Positions 19,188 through 35,290 of a stretch of DNA of 64,000 bases are shown piece by piece. This stretch comes from Candidatus Thorarchaeota archaeon (GTDB lineage Archaea > Asgardarchaeota > Thorarchaeia > Thorarchaeales > Thorarchaeaceae), in assembly GCA_029855935.1 (NCBI GenBank), contig JAGSHN010000025.1:147135-211134 (forward strand), given 5' to 3'. The position numbers and the translations under genes were made by a program. Below the pieces are notes generated by a model, which was not told the origin of the DNA, did not search any database, and was given only the letters and a program-made list of their open reading frames with translations. Numbering within the stretch: the stretch's first letter is position 1; each line of letters opens with the position of its first letter.

Positions 19188-20915
19188 CTAGAAGACGGCA
19201 CGGACAGTGTTCAGTACAAGACCCACGAGATCCCTTGCCCGAGAGACCCTGATGACCGTCGCGCCCGCCTTGGTCAGAAGGGCCATCGACGGAGGATCAG
19301 AGCCCTCATCAAGCCATATGTGGAACACGAACAGGCTATGGCCGCGCTGTGTCAACCTCCTCACGCAGCGGACCATCTCTCCCCAGTTAGAGACTTCAGC
19401 GTCCGTGACCATCAGCACGACGGTCCTGTGCTCTGAGAGCAGACCCATCGTTTCGATTGCCTCGGCGGGAAGGACAGTGCCCTCCCCTTGGTACCTGAGC
19501 AGCACACGTTCGAGCAGGCTTCGTTCCCTCGTCCATCTCGTCTCAATCCAGTCTGAGGAGAAGTTGATGACAGCAACCCTGGACCCGCGACGCAACACAT
19601 AGTCGATTGCGGCAAAGGCGGATAGGAGAGCAAGATGAAATGCTCCCGAGAGCGAGGAGGTCCTGACATTCCAGGTCATCGAGCCACTGGAGTCAAGCAC
19701 AAGCAGAAGGTCTGGGAGGACCTTGGCCTCCGTGTCGGAATAGGACTCTACCCGGTGCCACCTCCGCGTTGATAGGTTCGGTATGAGGACGGGAAATGCC
19801 TGCAACGACTGGACCACATCAAGCTCCTCAATTGGATCACCAATCCGCCATACAATCGGAGCTAGCGGCAGGGCACCAGTGTGGCTACGCTCTCGTATCT
19901 CAAGCCTGACTAGCTCGCGAGCAAGGGCACGATACCAGAAACGGAGCCAGTCACGGCCTGAACCAGTGACCCCGCGCAGTACCATGGCCGCGCGAAAGTC
20001 CTCAAGATTGCCACCACGTTCTCTGATACTCGCAGCAGTGGCCTCAATCTCGGCCTCACTGGCGCGACGCAACGGGTCTGTGCATTCTCTCACACGCTCG
20101 CCGTTGCGAATCTCGACGGGACTGCCCATCACCCTGTCTACATCTTGTGGGACACGAACAACATCCTCCTTGCCCTCACCACGCCACGGCAGGCGCACCA
20201 TCTTGATGCTCTCGCCCGAGCCGCTGCCCGGCAGGCCCTCTTCCCCTGAAGTCCCCCCGAGTCTGGCAATGATCTGAGCAATCTTTTCGACTGCCAAGGG
20301 CCATCTGCGTTCACGATGACGATACTGGCGGAACACCTCCACAATCTCGGAGGCTGCAGCCAAGATGTCTCTACCGAGCTTCACGGACTCCGGAACGGGG
20401 AGACCCCACTGGACTCGGTAGGTCGCCACGATGAGCGACCAGAGGACTGACCGCTGGGCGCCCTTCATTGCGGAATAGTAGACCGAGTGTACGATCCGAT
20501 TGTGGGTCAGACGAGGATACTGCTCAAGAAGTAGGGAGTCGACGACGAGGTCCGCGAACAGGTTACACGCGAACATAGCGGTCTCGTCATTCAGATGTCG
20601 TCGGGCACGGGAGAACATCATCGCACTGGTCACGTTGTCATAAGGACAGGTCAGGTAGTGCTGCAGCTCATGATGGCACACTGACCTGACAAAGGCGAAG
20701 GTCTCTTCGCTCGTCAGATAGTCGGGGACACTAGCGAGGTTGAGATGGACAGTCCACGTCTCGGTGTCGATGTAAAAGTGGCTGGGACGCTCGTCGTCGA
20801 TGTCTATGACAGGGTCAGGGACAGGCGGCGAGTACAGGTCAGCCAGTGCCCGTGACCACGCACGCTCTGCGACCTCTATGATATGAGGCATGCCAGATCT
20901 GCTGTCGGACACCAT
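19188..20915 (-). CDS. VWA-domain protein with an N-terminal HExxH putative metallopeptidase domain
   Basis: HHELQH plus downstream NLFAD; MIDAS elements DSSGS, GEGT and TDAE. Confidence 0.8.
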   Translation of the reverse strand: MVSDSRSGMPHIIEVAERAWSRALADLYSPPVPDPVIDIDDERPSHFYIDTETWTVHLNLASVPDYLTSEETFAFVRSVCHHELQHYLTCPYDNVTSAMMFSRARRHLNDETAMFACNLFADLVVDSLLLEQYPRLTHNRIVHSVYYSAMKGAQRSVLWSLIVATYRVQWGLPVPESVKLGRDILAAASEIVEVFRQYRHRERRWPLAVEKIAQIIARLGGTSGEEGLPGSGSGESIKMVRLPWRGEGKEDVVRVPQDVDRVMGSPVEIRNGERVRECTDPLRRASEAEIEATAASIRERGGNLEDFRAAMVLRGVTGSGRDWLRFWYRALARELVRLEIRERSHTGALPLAPIVWRIGDPIEELDVVQSLQAFPVLIPNLSTRRWHRVESYSDTEAKVLPDLLLVLDSSGSMTWNVRTSSLSGAFHLALLSAFAAIDYVLRRGSRVAVINFSSDWIETRWTRERSLLERVLLRYQGEGTVLPAEAIETMGLLSEHRTVVLMVTDAEVSNWGEMVRCVRRLTQRGHSLFVFHIWLDEGSDPPSMALLTKAGATVIRVSRARDLVGLVLNTVRAVF

Positions 20916-22669
20916 CAACGCCTCGCTACTTGTCCCAGTCCCTCCTCAATTATCCTCCTCAGTCTGATTGCAGGAGTACCACCCGACACCTCAAGAAACA
21001 CGGATGAGTCCGGTGAATCGCCAGTGACATAGATGACCAGGGTCAGTTGATCCATTCGAATGACACGTCGCTTGGGCGGATGTAGGGTCTCCTTTAGGAA
21101 GGGCGTCATCTCGGGGAATGCCATACTGATGGTCGTCCACAGCTCACTCCAACGACGGAAGTCAAGGGTGTACTGCGACAGCGTAAGCCTGTGAAGGGCA
21201 TCCGAGACCCGGCCAATCAGGGCGGCGCGGTTCGGTATTGTAGATGACCGTACAAGTTCCGCATACACCTTTGAGAGCCTCTTGACATCACCTGCAGCAA
21301 TAGCAGCATCAATACGATGCACCATCTTCTCGTACGAGGCCTGTATCATCTTCTTTGCCACAGGGAGATAGTCGAGTCTGACCAGTAGATCGCTCTTGGC
21401 AATCTCCTGGAGTTTCTGGATGTCATCACGAGACCCATCACCCGTCTGTAGGCGGGCCATTATCTTACGGGCTGGCTCCCGGGCCACGAATCGGGCAGTG
21501 GCCAGCTCCACAAGGTGGCACGTGAACTCGTATCTGTCACCATAGAAGGGCGATGCAGCCAGCCGGTCACGTACAAAGCGGGTGCGATGCCAGAAGACGA
21601 GCGGTGCAATCGACTTGACGATGTCCACACTCACTTCATCCGCACCGACAAGCCACGCTAGCGCCTTGCTGTAACGATTCAGGTCCTTTGCAGCCCTGAC
21701 GCTGAGTGGGATGACCACTTTGTTGCATACCGTCTTGGCGATGTTGTAGTGACATCCATCACAGAGTCCCGAGTCAACTGTCAGCTCTCCAGACTGGCTC
21801 TTGTCGACACGCACACAGGCGTCGAACTCCCTCACCAATGACCGTATGTACTCGGAGGCCCCGTGCGATACCGCCATCTTATCCGCAAGATTCCAGATTG
21901 TGAGGAGGTCCTCCTCTGTCAGGATCCCCGGCACCTGCCAGAGCTCGTCGTAGCCGAAGAGCCTCTCATCACGGGTACCCAGGATGATCTCAAGGTCAGA
22001 GATTCGAGGCATTGTTATTGGTACGGCAAGGCCAAACCTGTCGAGAAAGGGTGGCGCCAGCTCAAAGGTCCCCGAGTCGGTTGGATTCATAGTGGCAAAC
22101 AGGCAGTATTCCTCGCATCGGCGCACCTCATCATAGTACTTGAGTTCGCCCTCCGCAAGCATCGACAGGAGTATGTTCTGTGCATGCGGAGTGAGACGAT
22201 TGACCTCATCGACTATTTTCCAGAAGTCCGTTACAAACCGCCGCCAAACAACAACCTCGCGACCCTCCTTCATCAACGGGCCAGGACGAAGCGTCGCCAC
22301 CATCTTCTCCTCGGTCAGCTGTGGGTGTCCACGGAGAATGGCATCCTCGATCTCGGCTATGCTCCGCCCCGTCATCATCCGGCCAAGGAGTTTCACAAGG
22401 GTGGTCTTGCCGCCGCCGTGGCCTCCAACAAGCAGCATCGCAGAGCGAGGGACCAGGGCATTAAGAACACAGCTACCAGCAATGAGCGGCAGTCGAATCG
22501 ACTTCGCACGACCCGCTCCCGCTGGCTGATACTTCACGGTCAGCTCCCCGGAGTGAACGAACAGGCCGTGGCTCTCGACCGTCGTGATGACCTCCATCAC
22601 CTTGCGCCTCAGCTGTTCGTTCCTGCTGACCATTGCGATCACATCGCGTACTCTTATCGGAGTCTCCAT
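20915..22669 (-). CDS. MoxR-like AAA+ ATPase
   Basis: GGHGGGKTT, IVDEVNR, ATMN, LDRF and SVRA motifs; coupled to the VWA gene. Confidence 0.88.
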   Translation of the reverse strand: METPIRVRDVIAMVSRNEQLRRKVMEVITTVESHGLFVHSGELTVKYQPAGAGRAKSIRLPLIAGSCVLNALVPRSAMLLVGGHGGGKTTLVKLLGRMMTGRSIAEIEDAILRGHPQLTEEKMVATLRPGPLMKEGREVVVWRRFVTDFWKIVDEVNRLTPHAQNILLSMLAEGELKYYDEVRRCEEYCLFATMNPTDSGTFELAPPFLDRFGLAVPITMPRISDLEIILGTRDERLFGYDELWQVPGILTEEDLLTIWNLADKMAVSHGASEYIRSLVREFDACVRVDKSQSGELTVDSGLCDGCHYNIAKTVCNKVVIPLSVRAAKDLNRYSKALAWLVGADEVSVDIVKSIAPLVFWHRTRFVRDRLAASPFYGDRYEFTCHLVELATARFVAREPARKIMARLQTGDGSRDDIQKLQEIAKSDLLVRLDYLPVAKKMIQASYEKMVHRIDAAIAAGDVKRLSKVYAELVRSSTIPNRAALIGRVSDALHRLTLSQYTLDFRRWSELWTTISMAFPEMTPFLKETLHPPKRRVIRMDQLTLVIYVTGDSPDSSVFLEVSGGTPAIRLRRIIEEGLGQVARR

Positions 22670-22741
22670 TCTGCCTTATGGTTGATGCGGTGAACGCGCC
22701 AAAGAGTGCCCCGCCCGAAGATGTAATAAACGTAGATTCCG

Positions 22742-23848
22742 ATGCCGGATGAAGGGCAGGTACCTACAGTGGGCGAAGAGACCTCATTTGCTGACGCGAT
22801 AAGGCTGGTGTCGCGGGAGGACATCAGTCCCAGTGGACTAGCACAGCGGTCAGTCGTCGAGATGGCAGAGTCTGTAGCCGAGGTCATTTCTGGCACCCTA
22901 GCCGCACGAGAGCAACTCGAGCAATTGGGCCTCTCCCCATGCACAAGGATACTATTCACGGGCCCCGTAGGAACGGACTTTGAGGACTTTGTCCTCTCTG
23001 TCTGCAGAGAGATGTCGCTGAATCTCGTAAGACTTCGAGTCGAGAGAACATTGCAATACGAGAGAGAGTTTGACACACTTGTTGCAGCAGCACTGGACAC
23101 TGCACGCAGAGAGGCACCAGCCCTCCTGCACATCTCGTCACTGCATCTCTTGAGGGCCGTTGGAGAACGTTCTGAGGTCCTTCTCCGAGAACAGCTGGCA
23201 CAGTCGTCTATGGATAGCCAGTCTCTCGTCGTCATTGTGGGCACCACTCACAGGCCACAGGATCTCGACCCACAGACCCTGCTTGCCTTCGACAGAGTGT
23301 TGTGCGTCGGTCCCCCGGACGGAGAGGACCGGCAGAGTCTGCTCGTCCAGGCCCTTGCGTCACACGAGGACATTGATATTCCTCGTCTCGTAGACCTCAC
23401 CGACGGGTGGTCCTACGCGTCACTCAGACATCTTGTTGCGGCCGTATTGGCAGAGGGCGGAGAGTCGGGCGAGGCGCCATCCATAGACCGCATCGAGAAG
23501 ATGATAGAGGAGGGGCTGTTCGTCCCAGTTCTTGCCACAGGCAGCACAACCGAACTGGAAAAGAGGCTTGTCGGCGGGGGACGGGGGATCACACACGTCA
23601 TTGAGGAGGTGTATCCTGATGACCTCCTCGACCAGCTCTACCTGATGGTCGTTACGGAGGACTATGGGACAGCACAGCAAGTCATCGAGGCCCTAAACGA
23701 GGGACTCCCGCTCTCTGATGAGCAGGTGAGGTTCCTCAACCGTTTTCCGTTTCTCCTCTCAGGAGAGCCCCGTGAGAGGCTCGCCCGTCTGATAAGGGCG
23801 AAGAAGAATAGAGACCGTCTGATGCGCGTGATGGGAAGGGAGGAATGA
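22742..23848 (+). CDS. Catalytically degenerate classic-clade AAA ATPase (CDC48/PAN/Vps4-like fold)
   Basis: ILFTGPVGTDFE, ARREAPALLHISS, GTTHRPQDLDP, FDRVLCVGPPD and TDGWS align with the AAA consensus but lack the Walker A Lys, Walker B acids and Arg fingers. Confidence 0.75.
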   Translation: MPDEGQVPTVGEETSFADAIRLVSREDISPSGLAQRSVVEMAESVAEVISGTLAAREQLEQLGLSPCTRILFTGPVGTDFEDFVLSVCREMSLNLVRLRVERTLQYEREFDTLVAAALDTARREAPALLHISSLHLLRAVGERSEVLLREQLAQSSMDSQSLVVIVGTTHRPQDLDPQTLLAFDRVLCVGPPDGEDRQSLLVQALASHEDIDIPRLVDLTDGWSYASLRHLVAAVLAEGGESGEAPSIDRIEKMIEEGLFVPVLATGSTTELEKRLVGGGRGITHVIEEVYPDDLLDQLYLMVVTEDYGTAQQVIEALNEGLPLSDEQVRFLNRFPFLLSGEPRERLARLIRAKKNRDRLMRVMGREE

Positions 23849-23852
23849 CTGA

Positions 23853-26800
23853 TTGAGCGTGATCGTGAGGTCAATCAGACTCAGGAACTTCATGCCCTTC
23901 GTGGACGAGACAGTCCCGCTCGACCGCGGACTGACAGTCATTGTGGGGAGGAACGGCGCTGGCAAGAGTGCGATACTGCACGGACTGAAGTTCTGCCTGG
24001 GCTCAAACCAGCGAGAGAAACGATTTGGTAGCTGGGAGGGCTTCATCAGATGGGGCGCGGAAGTTGCAGAAGTTGAAGTGACGGTTGAGCATCAGGGTGA
24101 GACGATCGTCTTCGCGCGCAGGATTGGCAAGAAGGGAGTCCCACTGGCCTACATTAACGGCCGAAGGGTCCGTGCATCGGAGCTGCGGCGCGAGGTCGAG
24201 CGCCTCGGTTTCAAGGTTGACAACCCTCTTGTCTTCCTCCCACAGGAACGTGTCATTCAGCTGAGCAGTGCATCAGCAACCGACATCAGAGAGATGGTCG
24301 AGGATGGTACGGGACTCTACAGACTGAGGGACCGGATCCTCCTTCAGGAGACAGAACTGCGTCACGACAGGATGAGATTGGAGGCCGCGCTTCTGGAGGC
24401 CCGCTCCATTCAGGGAGAATTGAAGCTTCTCGAGGGCGACCTCAAGCGCCTGAAGAAGAAGCAGGATCTGCAGAGGACCAGAGAGAGCCTTGAGATCGAG
24501 TTGAAGTGGGCCGAACTCGAACTTGTGGAGAGGAACATCGAGAGAATCGACCAGGAGATTCAGGAAGAGGAGGTCAGCCTAAGACAGGCCAGTGCAAAAG
24601 TCGAGGAGATTGAGAACAAGATAGAGAGTGAGACCCAGACGGCCAAGGCGATCGAGTCGCAGACGCAGCTAATAAGGACCGAACTCGGCCGACTGAGAGA
24701 GCGGCTGGATTCGGAACGAGACCGGTTGAAAAACCTGAAGGAGAGCAACAAGCAGGCTGTGATAGAGCTCGGGGAGATTGACAAGCGCATCAAGAGAGAC
24801 AGAATGGAGATGATGGCGCTACAGAGTGACATCGAGGCGAAGAAGAAGGAGATATGGAACACCACGGAGGAACTCGAGGAACTCAGGGAGAAGGAACAGG
24901 CGGCGAGAGAGGAACAGGAGAGACTTGAGGAGGCGCTAACACGCTACGTCGAGTGGAACACGCGTAGGATGGACATTCGGAGTAGACTGACAGCCGCACG
25001 AGGTCGGCTGAAGGACAGAGAGATAGATCTGAGAGCCTATCGCCAGAGGCTTCAGACAGACAGAGCCGATCTTGAGGAGATTGAGAGACAGTGGAGTGAT
25101 CTGTGGGAGACGCTCGAGACCACAAGCGAAGAGGAACTACTATCTCAAAGGACCGAGACCAACAATAGGATTGAAGAGCTGGCACAGAGGAGGGTGGCAC
25201 ATCTCAGCCGTATCGCTGAGCTGAAGAGGGAACTCGCGTTCACTGAAGAGTTGATAGCAGAGAGGTCAAAACGGATACCGAAGACTGTTCGTGCCCTCAG
25301 GTCTGAGGTAGAGAAGCACGGACTAGAGGCCATCGGTCCTCTCGTAGAGGTCGTGGGCGAGAACGAGGAGATGGCGGGCGCACTGGAGGCTGTACTGCGT
25401 GACCAGCTGGCCTTCGCATTCATAACGACAGACGCTGCGGACTTCCAGCTACTCTGTAGAATACGGGACGAACTTGAGGCGCCTGCACCAGTATTCCTAG
25501 TCGAAGATTCAACAGACGAGCGTGCCAAGGGGGCCCCCGAGATAGGAGGGAGGGAGGGGGTCCTTGGTGATCTGTGGCGGATGGCCGGGGTGACAGAGGA
25601 GCTTGCCCGCCTGCTGCGCAGGAGCATCGGATCGTTCTTGGTAGTCTCTGACGCAGGAGATGCAATGCGCATCGCCCGCACAGCAAGGGTAGCCACCGTC
25701 ACACCTCAAGGCCACGTCTTCATCGTTGGGAATGGTTTCGTCTTGAGCAGGCCCCAGAGTGGGCAGGCTGGACTCCTCTCGACAGCGCCTCTTCGAGCCA
25801 AGAGAGAGGTGCTGAGAAAGCAACTCATCGAAAGCGAACAACAGCTCGCGGAAACAGTCAGAGAGATTGCGAATCTGGAGCGACTGCGCGACGAGCTGAC
25901 CCAGCTTCTCGAGCGCTACGCGGAAAAGGACAGGATATGGGCCAGACGGAGCGAACTCGCAGAGGATATCGAGCGGACCGAGGAGGCCATCCGCAAGATC
26001 GAGGAGGAGATTCTCCCTCTGAGGGAGGAGATTGAAGAACTCGTGTCCGAGCTGAGGAAGATGGATAGCAAGCAGCCTCCTGAGAGGAGCCGGATTCAGG
26101 GCCAGCTCGTTGCCGTGCGTCAGCAGATCGCCAAGCTCGCCTCCGACATCTCCGCACGCAGGGGCCAGGTGGAGCGTGCAAGAGCTATCTTGAGGGCAGA
26201 TCAGGACAAGGTCGGTACACTGGAAGAGAGCATTGCTGCACTGCAGCAGCATCGTGATGAGCTGAAGGAGATTCTCAGGCTGGCTGCCGAACAGTCCGAC
26301 GAGATACTTGAGAACATAGAGGGCCTTGAGAGACGTATAGAGGAACTCTCTTCGAAGGAGGAGTCCCTGTCGCAGGAGCTGAGCGAACACCAGACAAAGC
26401 TGTACGCTCTGAACAGGGAGCTCGCGGAACACAACGTCCGTAGTCAGGACCTCATCAGAGAGGTGCGGCGCAAACGGCTACAACTGGGAAATCTTGAGAC
26501 TCGCAGGAAGGAGATACAGAGTCAGGTCGCCTCAATCGCACGACCAGCCCGGGTGAGACCCCTTGCAGATGTCACCCGCGAGCTGGAGAGCGTGACCTCG
26601 CGGTTGGACGAGTACAGGGATGTGGATGATGACCTTCTTCGCGTCAGGTCCGAGCTTGCCCAGCGACTGGCGGAGGTCGAGGCCAAGGCCGACCAGATAC
26701 GTGACGAGATGTCAGAGGCTGAGAGCACGCTGGAGGACATCAAGGCGCAGTACTACAGTGAGATGGCAAAGGTGCTGGAGCGTCTCGGCAGAGACATCAA

Positions 26801-27290
26801 CACTATTCTGAGGACTGTCGAGCTGGAAGGGGAGGTACGTCTGGAGATGGTCAAACAGGACGAGGAGTACGGGGTCGAGTTCCTGACGAGAATCAAGGAT
26901 GGTACGTTCAAGGGCGTGAGACCGGGATCCGGCGGAGAGCGCACCCTGATAACAATTGCACTGATCATCGCGCTACAGCAGCTGAATCCAGCCCCGATAT
27001 ACTTCCTCGATGAGGCGGACATGGCATTGGATGCTGTCTATGCGGACCGCGTCGGCCGACTGTTCAAGGCGGCTGCGGCCGACAAGCAGATTGTCATTCT
27101 GACACCGCTCCGGAGCGTCAAACTTCTCAAGCACGCAGACACTCTTCTGGGAGTTGCAACACCTGACGGTCGCACCCCAGTCATCATAGAGGCCCCAGAG
27201 GAGGACAAGAACGAAGAACAGAACGAGAGGAAAGAGGGAGATGCCAAGAGGGAGGGAGGCGACGATGACGATGGGAGGCAAGAGGAATGA
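23853..27290 (+). CDS. smc: SMC protein, Smc5/6-like
   Basis: GRNGAGKS, DNPLVFLPQERV Q-loop, two long coiled coils around a central hinge (AIGPL...ALEAVL), SGGER, FLDEAD and QIVILTP. Confidence 0.93.
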   Translation: MSVIVRSIRLRNFMPFVDETVPLDRGLTVIVGRNGAGKSAILHGLKFCLGSNQREKRFGSWEGFIRWGAEVAEVEVTVEHQGETIVFARRIGKKGVPLAYINGRRVRASELRREVERLGFKVDNPLVFLPQERVIQLSSASATDIREMVEDGTGLYRLRDRILLQETELRHDRMRLEAALLEARSIQGELKLLEGDLKRLKKKQDLQRTRESLEIELKWAELELVERNIERIDQEIQEEEVSLRQASAKVEEIENKIESETQTAKAIESQTQLIRTELGRLRERLDSERDRLKNLKESNKQAVIELGEIDKRIKRDRMEMMALQSDIEAKKKEIWNTTEELEELREKEQAAREEQERLEEALTRYVEWNTRRMDIRSRLTAARGRLKDREIDLRAYRQRLQTDRADLEEIERQWSDLWETLETTSEEELLSQRTETNNRIEELAQRRVAHLSRIAELKRELAFTEELIAERSKRIPKTVRALRSEVEKHGLEAIGPLVEVVGENEEMAGALEAVLRDQLAFAFITTDAADFQLLCRIRDELEAPAPVFLVEDSTDERAKGAPEIGGREGVLGDLWRMAGVTEELARLLRRSIGSFLVVSDAGDAMRIARTARVATVTPQGHVFIVGNGFVLSRPQSGQAGLLSTAPLRAKREVLRKQLIESEQQLAETVREIANLERLRDELTQLLERYAEKDRIWARRSELAEDIERTEEAIRKIEEEILPLREEIEELVSELRKMDSKQPPERSRIQGQLVAVRQQIAKLASDISARRGQVERARAILRADQDKVGTLEESIAALQQHRDELKEILRLAAEQSDEILENIEGLERRIEELSSKEESLSQELSEHQTKLYALNRELAEHNVRSQDLIREVRRKRLQLGNLETRRKEIQSQVASIARPARVRPLADVTRELESVTSRLDEYRDVDDDLLRVRSELAQRLAEVEAKADQIRDEMSEAESTLEDIKAQYYSEMAKVLERLGRDINTILRTVELEGEVRLEMVKQDEEYGVEFLTRIKDGTFKGVRPGSGGERTLITIALIIALQQLNPAPIYFLDEADMALDAVYADRVGRLFKAAAADKQIVILTPLRSVKLLKHADTLLGVATPDGRTPVIIEAPEEDKNEEQNERKEGDAKREGGDDDDGRQEE

Positions 27291-28003
27291 TCAGGGACGC
27301 ACTCAGGAGTAGGGTGAGACGCCTTGCCCGGAGTGTCGAGTCCGGAGAGGTCGACCCCCTCGAAGTTGAACTCGCGAGATTGTACAGAGAGCTGCAGGAA
27401 CTCTCGCAACAACTCCCAGTGAAGATGGAGATCGATGAGGCACTGAACGAACTCCTCAGTGCAAAGGTGGGTCGGGTGCAGGAACTGGCACGCGCCGTGG
27501 TGGACCCAGAACTGCTGGTAGACCGTGTGGCACACATGTCAGCCAGAGAGCTTGCCCGCCTCTTGAGGCTGAAGCGACCTCTGTTGGTCCCGGGGCTGTC
27601 GCATCAGCATATGCATCAGGCAGCGGAACGACTCAGACTTAGAGAACCGAGGAGGCAGTGGGACTTTGGGCGGGTCGAGCCAGTCGAACGGCCGACAAGG
27701 ATGGACCTGAGGCTTGAGCCGGAGATCACGGAGGAGGAGGTTGAAGAGTTCCTCACCTCAGTCCCAGTGGGAGAGCCACTACGACTGAGTGACCTCCTGC
27801 GGAGCGAGGACGTGGAGGAGTTCCTGCGTAGGTTCCTGATGGTGGTTCTTCTTGTGGCCAGCGGCGACCTTCAGTACGACGCGACCGCCAGAACCCTGAC
27901 CCGAGTAGAGAGGAGTCCGGACAGTACTTCTTCGCGTGAGCAACAACAGGTCGCTGGCCAGCCAGCGGACCGAGGGAGGAGATGGAGGAGGCGGTCCCGA
28001 TGA
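27287..28003 (+). CDS. scpA: Kleisin (ScpA/Nse4-like)
   Basis: N-terminal GEVDPLEVELARL (ScpA-type DP motif); C-terminal winged-helix FLMVVLLVASGDL; ATGA overlap with smc. Confidence 0.75.
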   Translation: MIRDALRSRVRRLARSVESGEVDPLEVELARLYRELQELSQQLPVKMEIDEALNELLSAKVGRVQELARAVVDPELLVDRVAHMSARELARLLRLKRPLLVPGLSHQHMHQAAERLRLREPRRQWDFGRVEPVERPTRMDLRLEPEITEEEVEEFLTSVPVGEPLRLSDLLRSEDVEEFLRRFLMVVLLVASGDLQYDATARTLTRVERSPDSTSSREQQQVAGQPADRGRRWRRRSR

Positions 28004-28521
28004 ACAACGAGTTCTCTGTCTTGATGAGCGCACTGACGAGGCCCGGAAACCCCCCGGGGGCAAATATCTCAGACCTGATCGAGGTGCTTGGCTATCCAGT
28101 CGACCCGGGACGGACAATCGTATTCAGGCTGCTCGCCGGGCTGGATCGCATCCTGCATCAGGTGGGCCTGAGGATAGCGTTCAATCCGGTCGAAGATGTC
28201 TTCTTCATCGATGTCACTGCAAGGGGCAAGGAGGACAGGACAAGACTCCCCGACCGCCTTGCGGCTACACTGCTTGCCGTGATAGCACTGTCCTATCGGG
28301 AGCGCGACTGGGTCCAGGTGAGCCAAGTCAGACGCGTCCGCAGAAAGACGATGAGATCGGTCCGTGCGGACCTCCGTGAACTCCAGGTCCTCGGGTACGT
28401 AGAGTTCAGTGACGACGGGACCCGCGTCAGACCGGGTATTCGTGTGTCCTTCGAGGTCGACCACGATGAGTTCTTCCGTGCGCTGAGCAAGGGAAAGTAC
28501 GGCGCGAGCAGTGACGAATAG
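28000..28521 (+). CDS. KITE tandem winged-helix protein (ScpB/Nse1-Nse3-like)
   Basis: Two wHTH-like halves (ISDLIEVLG...LDRILHQVGLRI; DLRELQVLGYVE...RPGIR); ATGA overlap with the kleisin; GGAGGAG RBS. Confidence 0.7.
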   Translation: MNNEFSVLMSALTRPGNPPGANISDLIEVLGYPVDPGRTIVFRLLAGLDRILHQVGLRIAFNPVEDVFFIDVTARGKEDRTRLPDRLAATLLAVIALSYRERDWVQVSQVRRVRRKTMRSVRADLRELQVLGYVEFSDDGTRVRPGIRVSFEVDHDEFFRALSKGKYGASSDE

Positions 28522-28599: not shown

Positions 28600-28959
28600 A
28601 TGTCGCACAGGAAAGCATTGAGATTCGCAAAGACTGTCTGTCCCATCTGCGGTAGCAAAGAGGTTGCCCGTGATGACCTGAAGGGCGACCTTCTGTGCAC
28701 GAACTGTGGCCACATAATCACAAGACATGAGACCCGGGCCGTTGGAAAGTTCGAGATCGCGCAGCATCTGAAACGCGAGGGCAAGCTCACGTTCGAGCAG
28801 CTCAAAGAGATCACAAAGTCATCGGACGACCGACTGTTTGGCGTGCTGCAGAGCATGCTCAGCATGGGGCTCATTGACGAACTGGGTGGCAAGTATCACC
28901 TGACCAAGCGTGGTCAGCGCTGGTACCGCCAGAGACTGGGACAAGAATGGGGATATTGA
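28600..28959 (+). CDS. TFIIB-type Zn-ribbon plus winged-helix protein
   Basis: CPICGSKEVARDDLKGDLLCTNCGHII followed by LTFEQL...GLIDELGGKYHLTKRG. Confidence 0.75.
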   Translation: MSHRKALRFAKTVCPICGSKEVARDDLKGDLLCTNCGHIITRHETRAVGKFEIAQHLKREGKLTFEQLKEITKSSDDRLFGVLQSMLSMGLIDELGGKYHLTKRGQRWYRQRLGQEWGY

Positions 28960-34579: not shown

Positions 34580-35290
34580 GTGCCAGTTGTGGGCGGGCTC
34601 CTCCAAATGACCGGGCTCACCAGCGTGCTCCTCCTCTTGATAATCGTTCTTGGCCCGGCCATCGCCACCATAACAGGGGCTCTCGGAATAAGGAGATATG
34701 CACGAGGAGGGTTCGTCGGACACGATCAGTTCACCGCAATGAATCTACTCGTTGCACTGGGCGTCGGTGTACTGGTACTCCCTGAGATCCTTGCCTCAAT
34801 CATCACTATCGTGCCCTCAGCGACAAGTGACGTGATGGTTGTCATGTTGCTTCAGTTCCCGGGCGTTATCCTGTGGACACTTGGAACGATGAGCTACTAC
34901 AGTGCTGCCATTAGCGCCCTGAAACGTCGTAGCGTCCGTGGGGACATAGCGACGATGATTGTTGTGGCAGCGATCGTGACTGTGACTCCTACTTGGCTAT
35001 CTGTCGACTCTCCTGCGTCAAGAGATGTCATTCGAGCACTGGCCTACTTTCCCACAACAACAGCACTCGGTGCCACAGTCATTGCACTGGCTGCTCTTGC
35101 ATGGTCATTCAGAGGGGGGAGGATTGGAATCTTCATCATTGTCCTCTTGGCCGGCATGATAGTCTATCTGGTCCAGAGCCTGATGTGGGGGGCGCTCGGC
35201 ATACTCCCAACAGACATCATCACACGTCTTCTCTCAGTCGAGGCATACGTTCTGCTGGGGCTAACACAGAGCATCGAGGAGACTCTCTGA
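34580..35290 (+). CDS. Multi-pass membrane protein of unknown function
   Basis: About 7 hydrophobic segments; fills the gap between neighbouring genes. Confidence 0.6.
   Translation: MPVVGGLLQMTGLTSVLLLLIIVLGPAIATITGALGIRRYARGGFVGHDQFTAMNLLVALGVGVLVLPEILASIITIVPSATSDVMVVMLLQFPGVILWTLGTMSYYSAAISALKRRSVRGDIATMIVVAAIVTVTPTWLSVDSPASRDVIRALAYFPTTTALGATVIALAALAWSFRGGRIGIFIIVLLAGMIVYLVQSLMWGALGILPTDIITRLLSVEAYVLLGLTQSIEETL

Follow-up and report, generated by a model that had tools for sequence, protein, structure and literature searches.

Whether an Asgard archaeon with a canonical Smc-ScpA-ScpB operon possesses a second SMC (structural maintenance of chromosomes) complex, and whether such a complex is a relative of eukaryotic Smc5/6, is the question raised by a locus of Candidatus Thorarchaeota. 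The locus lies in a 64,000-nucleotide stretch of the GenBank assembly GCA_029855935.1 (contig JAGSHN010000025.1, positions 147,135 to 211,134 of the forward strand), which was analysed as a whole and is hereafter called the window. Four co-directional open reading frames (ORFs) occupy positions 22742–28521 (+) of the window and encode, in this order, a pseudo-AAA+ protein, an SMC, a kleisin and a kite protein, identified as follows (pLDDT, predicted local distance difference test; PDB, Protein Data Bank).

22742..23848, + strand: pseudo-AAA+ protein, 368 aa (PF00004, AlphaFold model, Foldseek, motif reading, adjacency to the SMC gene)
23853..27290, + strand: non-canonical SMC, 1145 aa, TTG start (Pfam SMC_N and SMC_hinge, invariant ATPase motifs, tree)
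27287..28003, + strand: kleisin, 238 aa (hhalign against the ScpA family, PDB profile matches, conserved position between SMC and kite)
28000..28521, + strand: kite, 173 aa, tandem winged helix (model with pLDDT 87, Foldseek, VIA-align, Pfam)

The operon probably encodes a second, non-canonical SMC-kleisin-kite ring with a catalytically dead AAA+ accessory protein, linked in the genome to a MoxR-VWA (von Willebrand factor A) gene pair and serving a specialised role on DNA. The initial annotation of this DNA, made from the sequence alone, had described four coupled genes with a 4-bp gap and two ATGA overlaps, and the coordinates and junctions are as claimed. As read directly, the AAA-SMC junction is TGA-ctga-TTG at 23846–23855, and the ATGA overlaps lie at 27287–27290 (SMC/kleisin) and 28000–28003 (kleisin/kite). 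Alternative in-frame GTG starts of the SMC gene are present at 23859 and 23865. The kite ORF also contains an upstream ATG at 27982, which would give a protein of 179 aa, while the start at 28000 is likelier, as the relatives align from residue 7–9 of the longer ORF.

The ring subunits and their relation to Smc5/6

The operon SMC matches the Pfam families SMC_N (1.3e-34, residues 5–1103) and SMC_hinge (PF06470, 2.4e-5, residues 494–608), and consists of a hinge, in which the canonical GG motif is missing, between long coiled-coil arms. Its head contains the Walker A motif GRNGAGKS, the Q-loop PQ(131), the SGGER signature and the Walker B/D-loop FLDEAD, and the residues G32, G37, K38, Q131, S1026, G1027, G1028, D1053 and E1054 are invariant in 20 members of the family. 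The motifs which had led the initial annotation to regard the protein as Smc5/Smc6-type (NFM/NFL, VDNPLVFLPQERV, SGGER and QIVILTP) are indeed present in the sequence and conserved in the family. The scores of 227 and 224 bits fall below the canonical equivalog cut-offs of 567 and 729 (TIGR02168/02169), and the protein is placed in a clade separate from canonical SMC.

The canonical SMC of the same genome (1228 aa) is encoded on another contig at C14:82175-85861, followed by ScpA (C14:85858-86574) and ScpB (C14:86583-87134). As the genome contains this separate operon (C14:82175-87134), the search for which had been set beforehand as a check, the Thorarchaeota locus encodes a second complex. 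The two operons share the gene order, a kleisin with a C-terminal winged helix, a tandem winged-helix kite and intact ATPase motifs. However, the operon SMC is only 22–26% identical to the canonical one and differs from it in the states of the Q-loop and H-loop as well as in the hinge, while the operon as a whole adds the AAA gene and diverges at roughly twice the rate. In Lokiarchaeia-type genomes three SMCs are present (G213:C1:568300-574300; G147:C2:363300-369100): the AAA-linked one, a canonical one (~1200 aa) and a third of ~1485–1490 aa, which groups inside the canonical Asgard SMCs in both trees described below.

The kleisin comprises an N-terminal helical domain, a variable linker and a C-terminal winged helix (RFLMVVLLVASGDLQYD). 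Its profile, built from 22 members, aligns by hhalign with the ScpA family of the canonical operons of the phylum (probability 89.7%, E 1.9e-6), collinearly over 184 columns, and weakly matches PDB chains of the ScpA C-terminal winged-helix domain (4i99_C from Pyrococcus, E 0.02; 5xns_C, E 0.07). The earlier claim that the 238-aa ORF is a kleisin is thus borne out by these comparisons. Pfam searches gave nothing significant with the single protein and scattered chance matches only with all 22 members, none of which matches the Pfam Nse4 families at E up to 1.

The kite model (pLDDT 87) shows two winged-helix domains, and its 30 top Foldseek matches are almost all ScpB, MukE, JetB, MAGE and Nse1/3 proteins, the best ones being ScpB. 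VIA-align gave a Z score of 10.4 over 149 aa with Nse1-3-4 and of 10.0 over 140 aa with ScpB, and hhalign against the ScpB of the phylum gave a probability of 45.6%. Among 16 kite members, Pfam detected ScpB in 2 and DUF4194/MksE in 2, while Pfam and PDB sequence searches with the single protein gave nothing useful. The protein contains no cysteine and no RING. The kite fold proposed for the 173-aa ORF is therefore supported by the model, Foldseek and VIA-align, but its predicted structure is not assignable to the Nse1/3 rather than the ScpB archetype, as the structure scores tie.

Archaeal clades of SMC5/6-related SMCs have been defined in two phylogenies (Yoshinaga & Inagaki 2021, PMC8665677; van Hooff et al., bioRxiv 10.1101/2024.01.07.573240). 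Those of TACK and Asgard archaea share their operons with a dedicated kleisin and kite, and separate homodimeric complexes have been proposed for them; for a Thorarchaeia genome, SMC5/6-related SMCs are tabulated together with a kite related to Nse1/3, while no kleisin related to Nse4 was found there (bioRxiv 10.1101/2024.01.07.573240). The present operon resembles these published ones (PMC8665677; van Hooff, Raas, Tromer & Eme) in comprising a second SMC paralogue with its own kleisin and kite in Asgard archaea. It differs from the tabulated Thorarchaeia entry in that a kleisin is identified here by profile comparison, and from the published descriptions in that the papers mention neither the AAA gene nor the MoxR-VWA linkage. 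The single-SMC, single-kite version suggested in the initial annotation agrees with the presence of one SMC and one kite of the AAA-linked type per genome, but it is not a new idea, as van Hooff et al. propose it.

The relationship to Smc5/6 was assessed with profiles, trees and head motifs, and has to be weighed against the reading that the operon SMC is a fast-evolving duplicate of canonical Smc-ScpAB, whose grouping with Smc5 would be an artefact of long branches and root placement. With the profile of the operon family, yeast and human Smc6 and Smc5 score 151–169 bits, whereas with the canonical Asgard SMC profile Smc6 scores 94–98 bits and Smc5 is absent from the 60 best matches listed. 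Fungal Smc5 scores 167 bits with the former and 80 with the latter. Smc5 and Smc6 thus score about twice as high with the operon-family profile, which speaks against a mere duplicate, while Smc1-4 score 150–250 bits with it and 390–523 bits with the canonical profile.

In a maximum-likelihood (ML) tree of 57 SMCs (LG+G4), the operon SMC family forms one clade (SH-like approximate likelihood-ratio test, SH-aLRT, 99), which groups with fungal Smc5 and short archaeal SMC-like proteins (SH-aLRT 98), apart from the canonical archaeal, the bacterial and the ~1485-aa Lokiarchaeia SMCs. The same split was obtained with the heads only under LG+C20 (SH-aLRT 94). Both trees were built without Smc6 and Smc1-4, with Smc5 sampled from Sordariomycetes only and a very long Rad50-like outgroup. 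A candidate Smc5/6 reference from Achlya (P0086) turned out to belong to neither Smc5 nor Smc6 and was discarded. The short archaeal SMC-like proteins (P0022, P0055, P0060, P0076 and P0085) are 641–679 aa long and contain no hinge; some of them are labelled Euryarchaeota or Halobacteriota, and both trees place them as the sister group of fungal Smc5. Two derived head states unite the operon SMC family with fungal Smc5 and these short proteins: the Q-loop reads DN..(P)Q and contains one inserted residue, and the histidine of the H-loop has given way to TP. Neither state occurs in canonical or bacterial SMC or in the Rad50-like outgroup. Both ML analyses, the two derived states and the two published phylogenies with SMC5/6-related archaeal clades speak against the operon SMC being a duplicate of the canonical one.

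Several observations weigh in favour of the duplicate and against the Smc5 side. Approximately unbiased (AU) tests do not reject trees in which the family is held with the canonical SMCs (p 0.231 and p 0.577), the constrained tree being slightly better in the latter case. In absolute terms the operon-family profile scores Smc2/3/4 (236–250 bits) above Smc6 and Smc5. The motifs NF and GKSS are ancestral rather than diagnostic, as they also occur in the Rad50-like outgroup, and the Smc5-side placement depends on where this outgroup attaches, because without it the four groups form a single quartet. The preference of the kite for ScpB in Foldseek and the two Pfam ScpB matches among its 16 members also suit a duplicate. 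Taken with the evidence of the trees and motifs, the duplicate is considered rather unlikely. The operon SMC is certainly not canonical, and a relationship to SMC5/6 is a plausible and the better-supported reading of its sequence, though not a secured one.

The ancestral homodimeric Smc5/6 envisaged in the initial annotation has the ML trees and the two derived motifs on its side, but is plausible rather than shown, as the AU tests do not reject the alternative and the grouping depends on the root. In the trees the SMC does not fall within canonical Smc, and the two small ORFs do have kleisin and kite features. The operon SMC family resembles eukaryotic Smc5/6 in the DN..PQ and ..TP.. head motifs of fungal Smc5, in the kite-based rather than hawk-based architecture and in its position on the Smc5 side of the ML trees, a grouping that is not statistically secured. 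It differs in that the Thorarchaeota operon encodes a single SMC and a single kite where eukaryotes have heterodimers, and no RING.

The pseudo-AAA+ protein and its linkage to the SMC gene

The first gene of the operon encodes a protein with a PF00004 match (E 1.2e-7) and weak AAA_lid_3 matches in Pfam, the AlphaFold model of which (pLDDT 85) shows the alpha/beta fold and lid of classical-clade AAA proteins. The top Foldseek matches of the model are p97 D2, PAN and Drg1 (E~1e-13, ~20% identity, TM score to target up to 0.78). The catalytic motifs are lost: the Walker A and Walker B positions read GPVGTDFE and LLHISS, sensor 1 is histidine (TTH) instead of asparagine, and Arg fingers are missing (LLAFD). 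The designation of this fourth gene of the operon as a pseudo-AAA gene was therefore correct in both respects, as the fold is present and the motifs are dead. A broken or decaying gene was considered and rejected, as the reading frame is uninterrupted, the fold is predicted with confidence and the phylum as a whole conserves the protein.

Compared with the classical-clade AAA+ proteins Cdc48/p97 D2, PAN and Vps4/CdvC, the Thorarchaeota protein shares the alpha/beta fold and lid, but lacks the Walker A lysine, the Walker B Asp-Glu, the sensor-1 asparagine and the Arg fingers. It further differs in having a single AAA module without a substrate-recognition N domain, and a conserved C-terminal helical domain of ~85 aa after the lid. 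This domain has no recognised relative, an ESM Atlas feature search having given no usable match. In one family the protein is shortened to little more than the lid and the C-terminal domain, which are thus likely to be its functional core.

The Walker A lysine is missing from every orthologue aligned. Among 70 full-length representatives of the AAA family, GK[ST] is kept in two, one of which (P0346) is fully intact with GPPGTGKT and ILFLDE. This sole fully canonical member found is encoded at L154:7001-8116 (GCA_048885365.1, JBHLPY010000025.1), and its gene still precedes an SMC and a kite of the AAA-linked family. As this lineage keeps intact motifs, the AAA partner probably began as an active ATPase and, judging from the sequences, became a pseudo-enzyme in most lineages. 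At the P0346 locus, a histone-fold gene lies ~1 kb downstream on the other strand.

The AAA gene stands directly upstream of the AAA-linked SMC gene in every Asgard lineage sampled. All 29 loci examined in the GTDB family of the window (f1) have the order AAA-SMC-kleisin, which also occurs in loci of four other Asgard families (the sister family f2, f7, f9 and f24). In phylum-wide profile searches, where AAA orthologues were recognised at E below 1e-28 and ordinary AAA proteins at about 1e-20, the AAA and SMC coordinates abut in the families for which both genes were listed, which adds f8, f19 and f29. The arrangement is thus not due to chance, as the order is kept across the f1 loci and in five other Asgard families. 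The AAA family is narrow, since a profile covering the lid and the C-terminal domain matched, among 1.84 billion representatives, only ~105 clusters at E up to 1e-9. At the loci of the three distant members looked up, the AAA gene is followed in each case by an SMC and a kite of the operon families, and in two by a detectable kleisin as well. No paper mentioning an AAA gene that precedes an SMC5/6-related SMC was found in the literature searched.

In one large genus of f1 (L014-L033), a convergent gene for a hydrophobic, probably membrane protein of ~260 aa (for example L018:5589-6365, - strand) separates the kleisin gene from the kite gene, which lies 2–4 kb further on (for example G116:C119:34973-35464).

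Linked genes, evolutionary rate and loss of the operon

Upstream of the operon the window contains a divergent gene pair, and downstream of it a small conserved gene, as follows.

20915..22669, - strand: MoxR-type AAA+ ATPase, 584 aa (AAA_5, AAA_lid_2); a divergent, linked module outside the ring
19188..20918, - strand: HExxH and VWA/MIDAS (metal ion-dependent adhesion site) partner of MoxR, 576 aa (VWA_2, 8.5e-6; HELQH, DSSGS)
22670..22741, no strand: divergent intergenic region of 72 bp between the MoxR gene and the AAA gene (read directly from the sequence)
28600..28959, + strand: small TFIIB zinc-ribbon protein (PF08271); a conserved downstream neighbour, whose membership in the system is uncertain

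Pairs of a MoxR ATPase and a VWA protein are chaperones or remodellers, for example RavA-ViaA, CbbQ-CbbO and NorQ-NorD. The Thorarchaeota pair corresponds to them in combining a MoxR AAA+ protein (AAA_5, 7e-14; AAA_lid_2; Walker A GGHGGGKT) with a VWA protein that bears a MIDAS motif (DSSGS), but differs in the N-terminal HExxH (HELQH) of the VWA partner and in its linkage to an SMC operon. Both motifs of the VWA partner are kept in the f7 orthologue. The pair adjoins the operon divergently in f1, across the 72 bp in the window, and is likewise adjacent and divergent in f2. In f7 (L042, L043 and L051) it is co-directional, and the AAA gene, placed between the VWA gene and smc, overlaps its neighbour on either side, so that a six-gene cluster results. 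The literature searched contained no paper linking MoxR with SMC complexes.

The TFIIB zinc ribbon (PF08271, 8.5e-8) lies in a protein of 119 aa, encoded after a 78-bp spacer behind the kite gene. The gene is kept downstream in f1 and f2 loci at 49–89% identity, and its product is far more conserved than the adjacent SMC operon. Further neighbours in the window are YgbA, an H+-pyrophosphatase and oxidoreductases. As initially stated, the operon contains no nuclease, RING or SUMO-ligase gene detectable by Pfam, PADLOC or neighbour annotation, and genes for Nse2, Nse5 and Nse6 were not found at the locus. In two unrelated loci of Lokiarchaeia type, genes for Eco57I/MmeI/TaqI_C type IIG-like restriction-modification methylases adjoin the operon (L040:840-2894 and L157:1-1197).

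The operon diverges faster than its surroundings. Compared with a genome of the same genus, identity is 40% for the AAA protein, 36% for the SMC, 34% for the kleisin and 50% for the kite, while several flanking genes reach 75–88%, MoxR 75% and its VWA partner 51%. In the same genome pair the canonical SMC is 65% identical. Across the two same-genus genomes searched, the range is 65–69% for the canonical SMC against 36–38% for the operon SMC, so that the module evolves about twice as fast as canonical SMC. The operon SMCs of three sampled same-genus members differ by 57–65% among themselves, and those of other genera of f1 are 52–57% identical to one another. The divergence is highest in the coiled coils (~30% identity) and lowest in the heads (44–58%). 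The SMC operon is not the sole fast-evolving locus, as another gene of the syntenic block (window 34580–35290, +) shares only 35% identity with its counterpart in the same genus.

The module is widely inherited but can be lost as a unit. Of the 15 f1 genomes without the SMC, 11 have neither the AAA orthologue nor the kite, and these include genomes of 92–96% completeness. A kite match with an internal TAA, apparently the remnant of a lost operon, is present at G112:C55:19637-20149 in a 93%-complete relative, in which no SMC or AAA orthologue was detected.

A possible mode of action and its competitors

In the proposed arrangement, an ATP-competent SMC homodimer would be closed by its own kleisin, the N-terminal helical domain of which may bind one SMC neck and the C-terminal winged helix the other head, and the kleisin would carry a dimer of the one kite protein. 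This ring has the architecture of Smc-ScpAB and of the published archaeal SMC5/6-related operons. The AAA protein, encoded first and apparently coupled in translation to the SMC, is Cdc48/PAN-like with ATP binding and hydrolysis lost, and may act as a stoichiometric accessory or regulatory subunit; its ancestor was probably a catalytically active AAA+ remodeller of the SMC complex. The active MoxR ATPase and its HExxH-VWA adaptor suggest an ATP-driven remodelling of the complex (loading, release or dismantling), because Thorarchaeota and two further Asgard families have the pair in genomic linkage with the operon. As the module is dispensable and fast-evolving, it fits a specialised role in DNA repair or maintenance, or in the handling of foreign or extrachromosomal DNA, rather than bulk segregation, and the canonical operon can cover bulk chromosome organisation and segregation.

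Some points count against this proposal. The physical contacts of every subunit pair are inferred, and the kleisin has no Pfam match, its homology resting on one profile-profile match below 95% probability. The MoxR-VWA linkage is absent around loci of Lokiarchaeia type, where the neighbours vary, which makes it a lineage-limited association. Fast evolution could also reflect relaxed constraint rather than a specialised role.

A defence function has to be considered as well, in which the operon would act, in the manner of Wadjet or human Smc5/6, against extrachromosomal or viral DNA, with the AAA protein and/or the MoxR-VWA pair as sensor or effector. SMC-based immunity is an established concept (PMC10586767), and such a function would suit the roughly doubled rate relative to canonical SMC, which is mostly due to the coiled coils but concerns the heads too, the loss of the module as a unit in some close relatives and the methylase genes near the two loci of other lineages. 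It is nevertheless unlikely, as no nuclease or other effector gene was found in the operon, PADLOC matched none of the AAA, kleisin, kite, MoxR and VWA proteins specifically, and the matches of the SMC head are weak and generic (JetC 4e-11 and LmuB 4e-18 against 4e-67 for SMC). The synteny among housekeeping genes (H+-pyrophosphatase, oxidoreductases) is conserved, and the operon occurs in most genomes of several Asgard families with a tree that follows the families, which fits vertical descent. Membership in Wadjet (JetABCD) or Lamassu was rejected, as the JetC match is only 4e-11 and PADLOC detected no JetA, JetB or JetD; the Thorarchaeota operon thus differs from Wadjet in that its match to the MukB-like JetC is weak, far below that to SMC, and that a match to the JetD Toprim nuclease is missing. 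The view of the initial annotation that this is not a Wadjet system is upheld, with no JetD match in PADLOC and no further gene in the operon.

That the AAA gene lies outside the SMC complex, as part of the MoxR-VWA module or as an unrelated neighbour, is very improbable. Its position in the six-gene cluster of f7, overlapping the VWA gene on one side and smc on the other, would allow such an assignment, but the AAA-SMC adjacency persists at Lokiarchaeia-type loci without MoxR-VWA nearby, the AAA orthologue is missing from genomes without the SMC, and the AAA family is essentially confined to the SMC context. The second SMC ring with a pseudo-AAA+ accessory therefore stays the preferred reading. 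A bolder version of it, considered improbable, regards the AAA protein as the remnant of a dedicated ATP-driven loader or unloader of an SMC5/6-type ring, which would still be catalytically intact in at least one Asgard lineage and in Thorarchaeota would serve as docking subunit for an active MoxR-VWA(-HExxH) machine that opens, releases or dismantles the kleisin ring. If true, the archaea most closely related to eukaryotes would possess a prokaryotic equivalent of the factors by which eukaryotes release or load such rings.

The trio of SMC, kleisin and kite belongs to a kind of operon already published, and the AAA partner, its intact relative, the MoxR-VWA linkage and the pattern of rate and co-loss were not found in the literature searched. 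The operon bears on the origin of the three kinds of SMC complexes of eukaryotes and on the loading and regulation of SMC5/6. Among known organisms, Asgard archaea are the nearest relatives of eukaryotes, and a simple, homodimeric and kite-based SMC5/6 relative in them would make a tractable model system. The operon is small enough for reconstitution. Its AAA subunit, mostly dead and intact in one lineage, and the MoxR-VWA pair are candidate regulators of ring loading and release that are unrecorded in the published surveys of SMC subunits.

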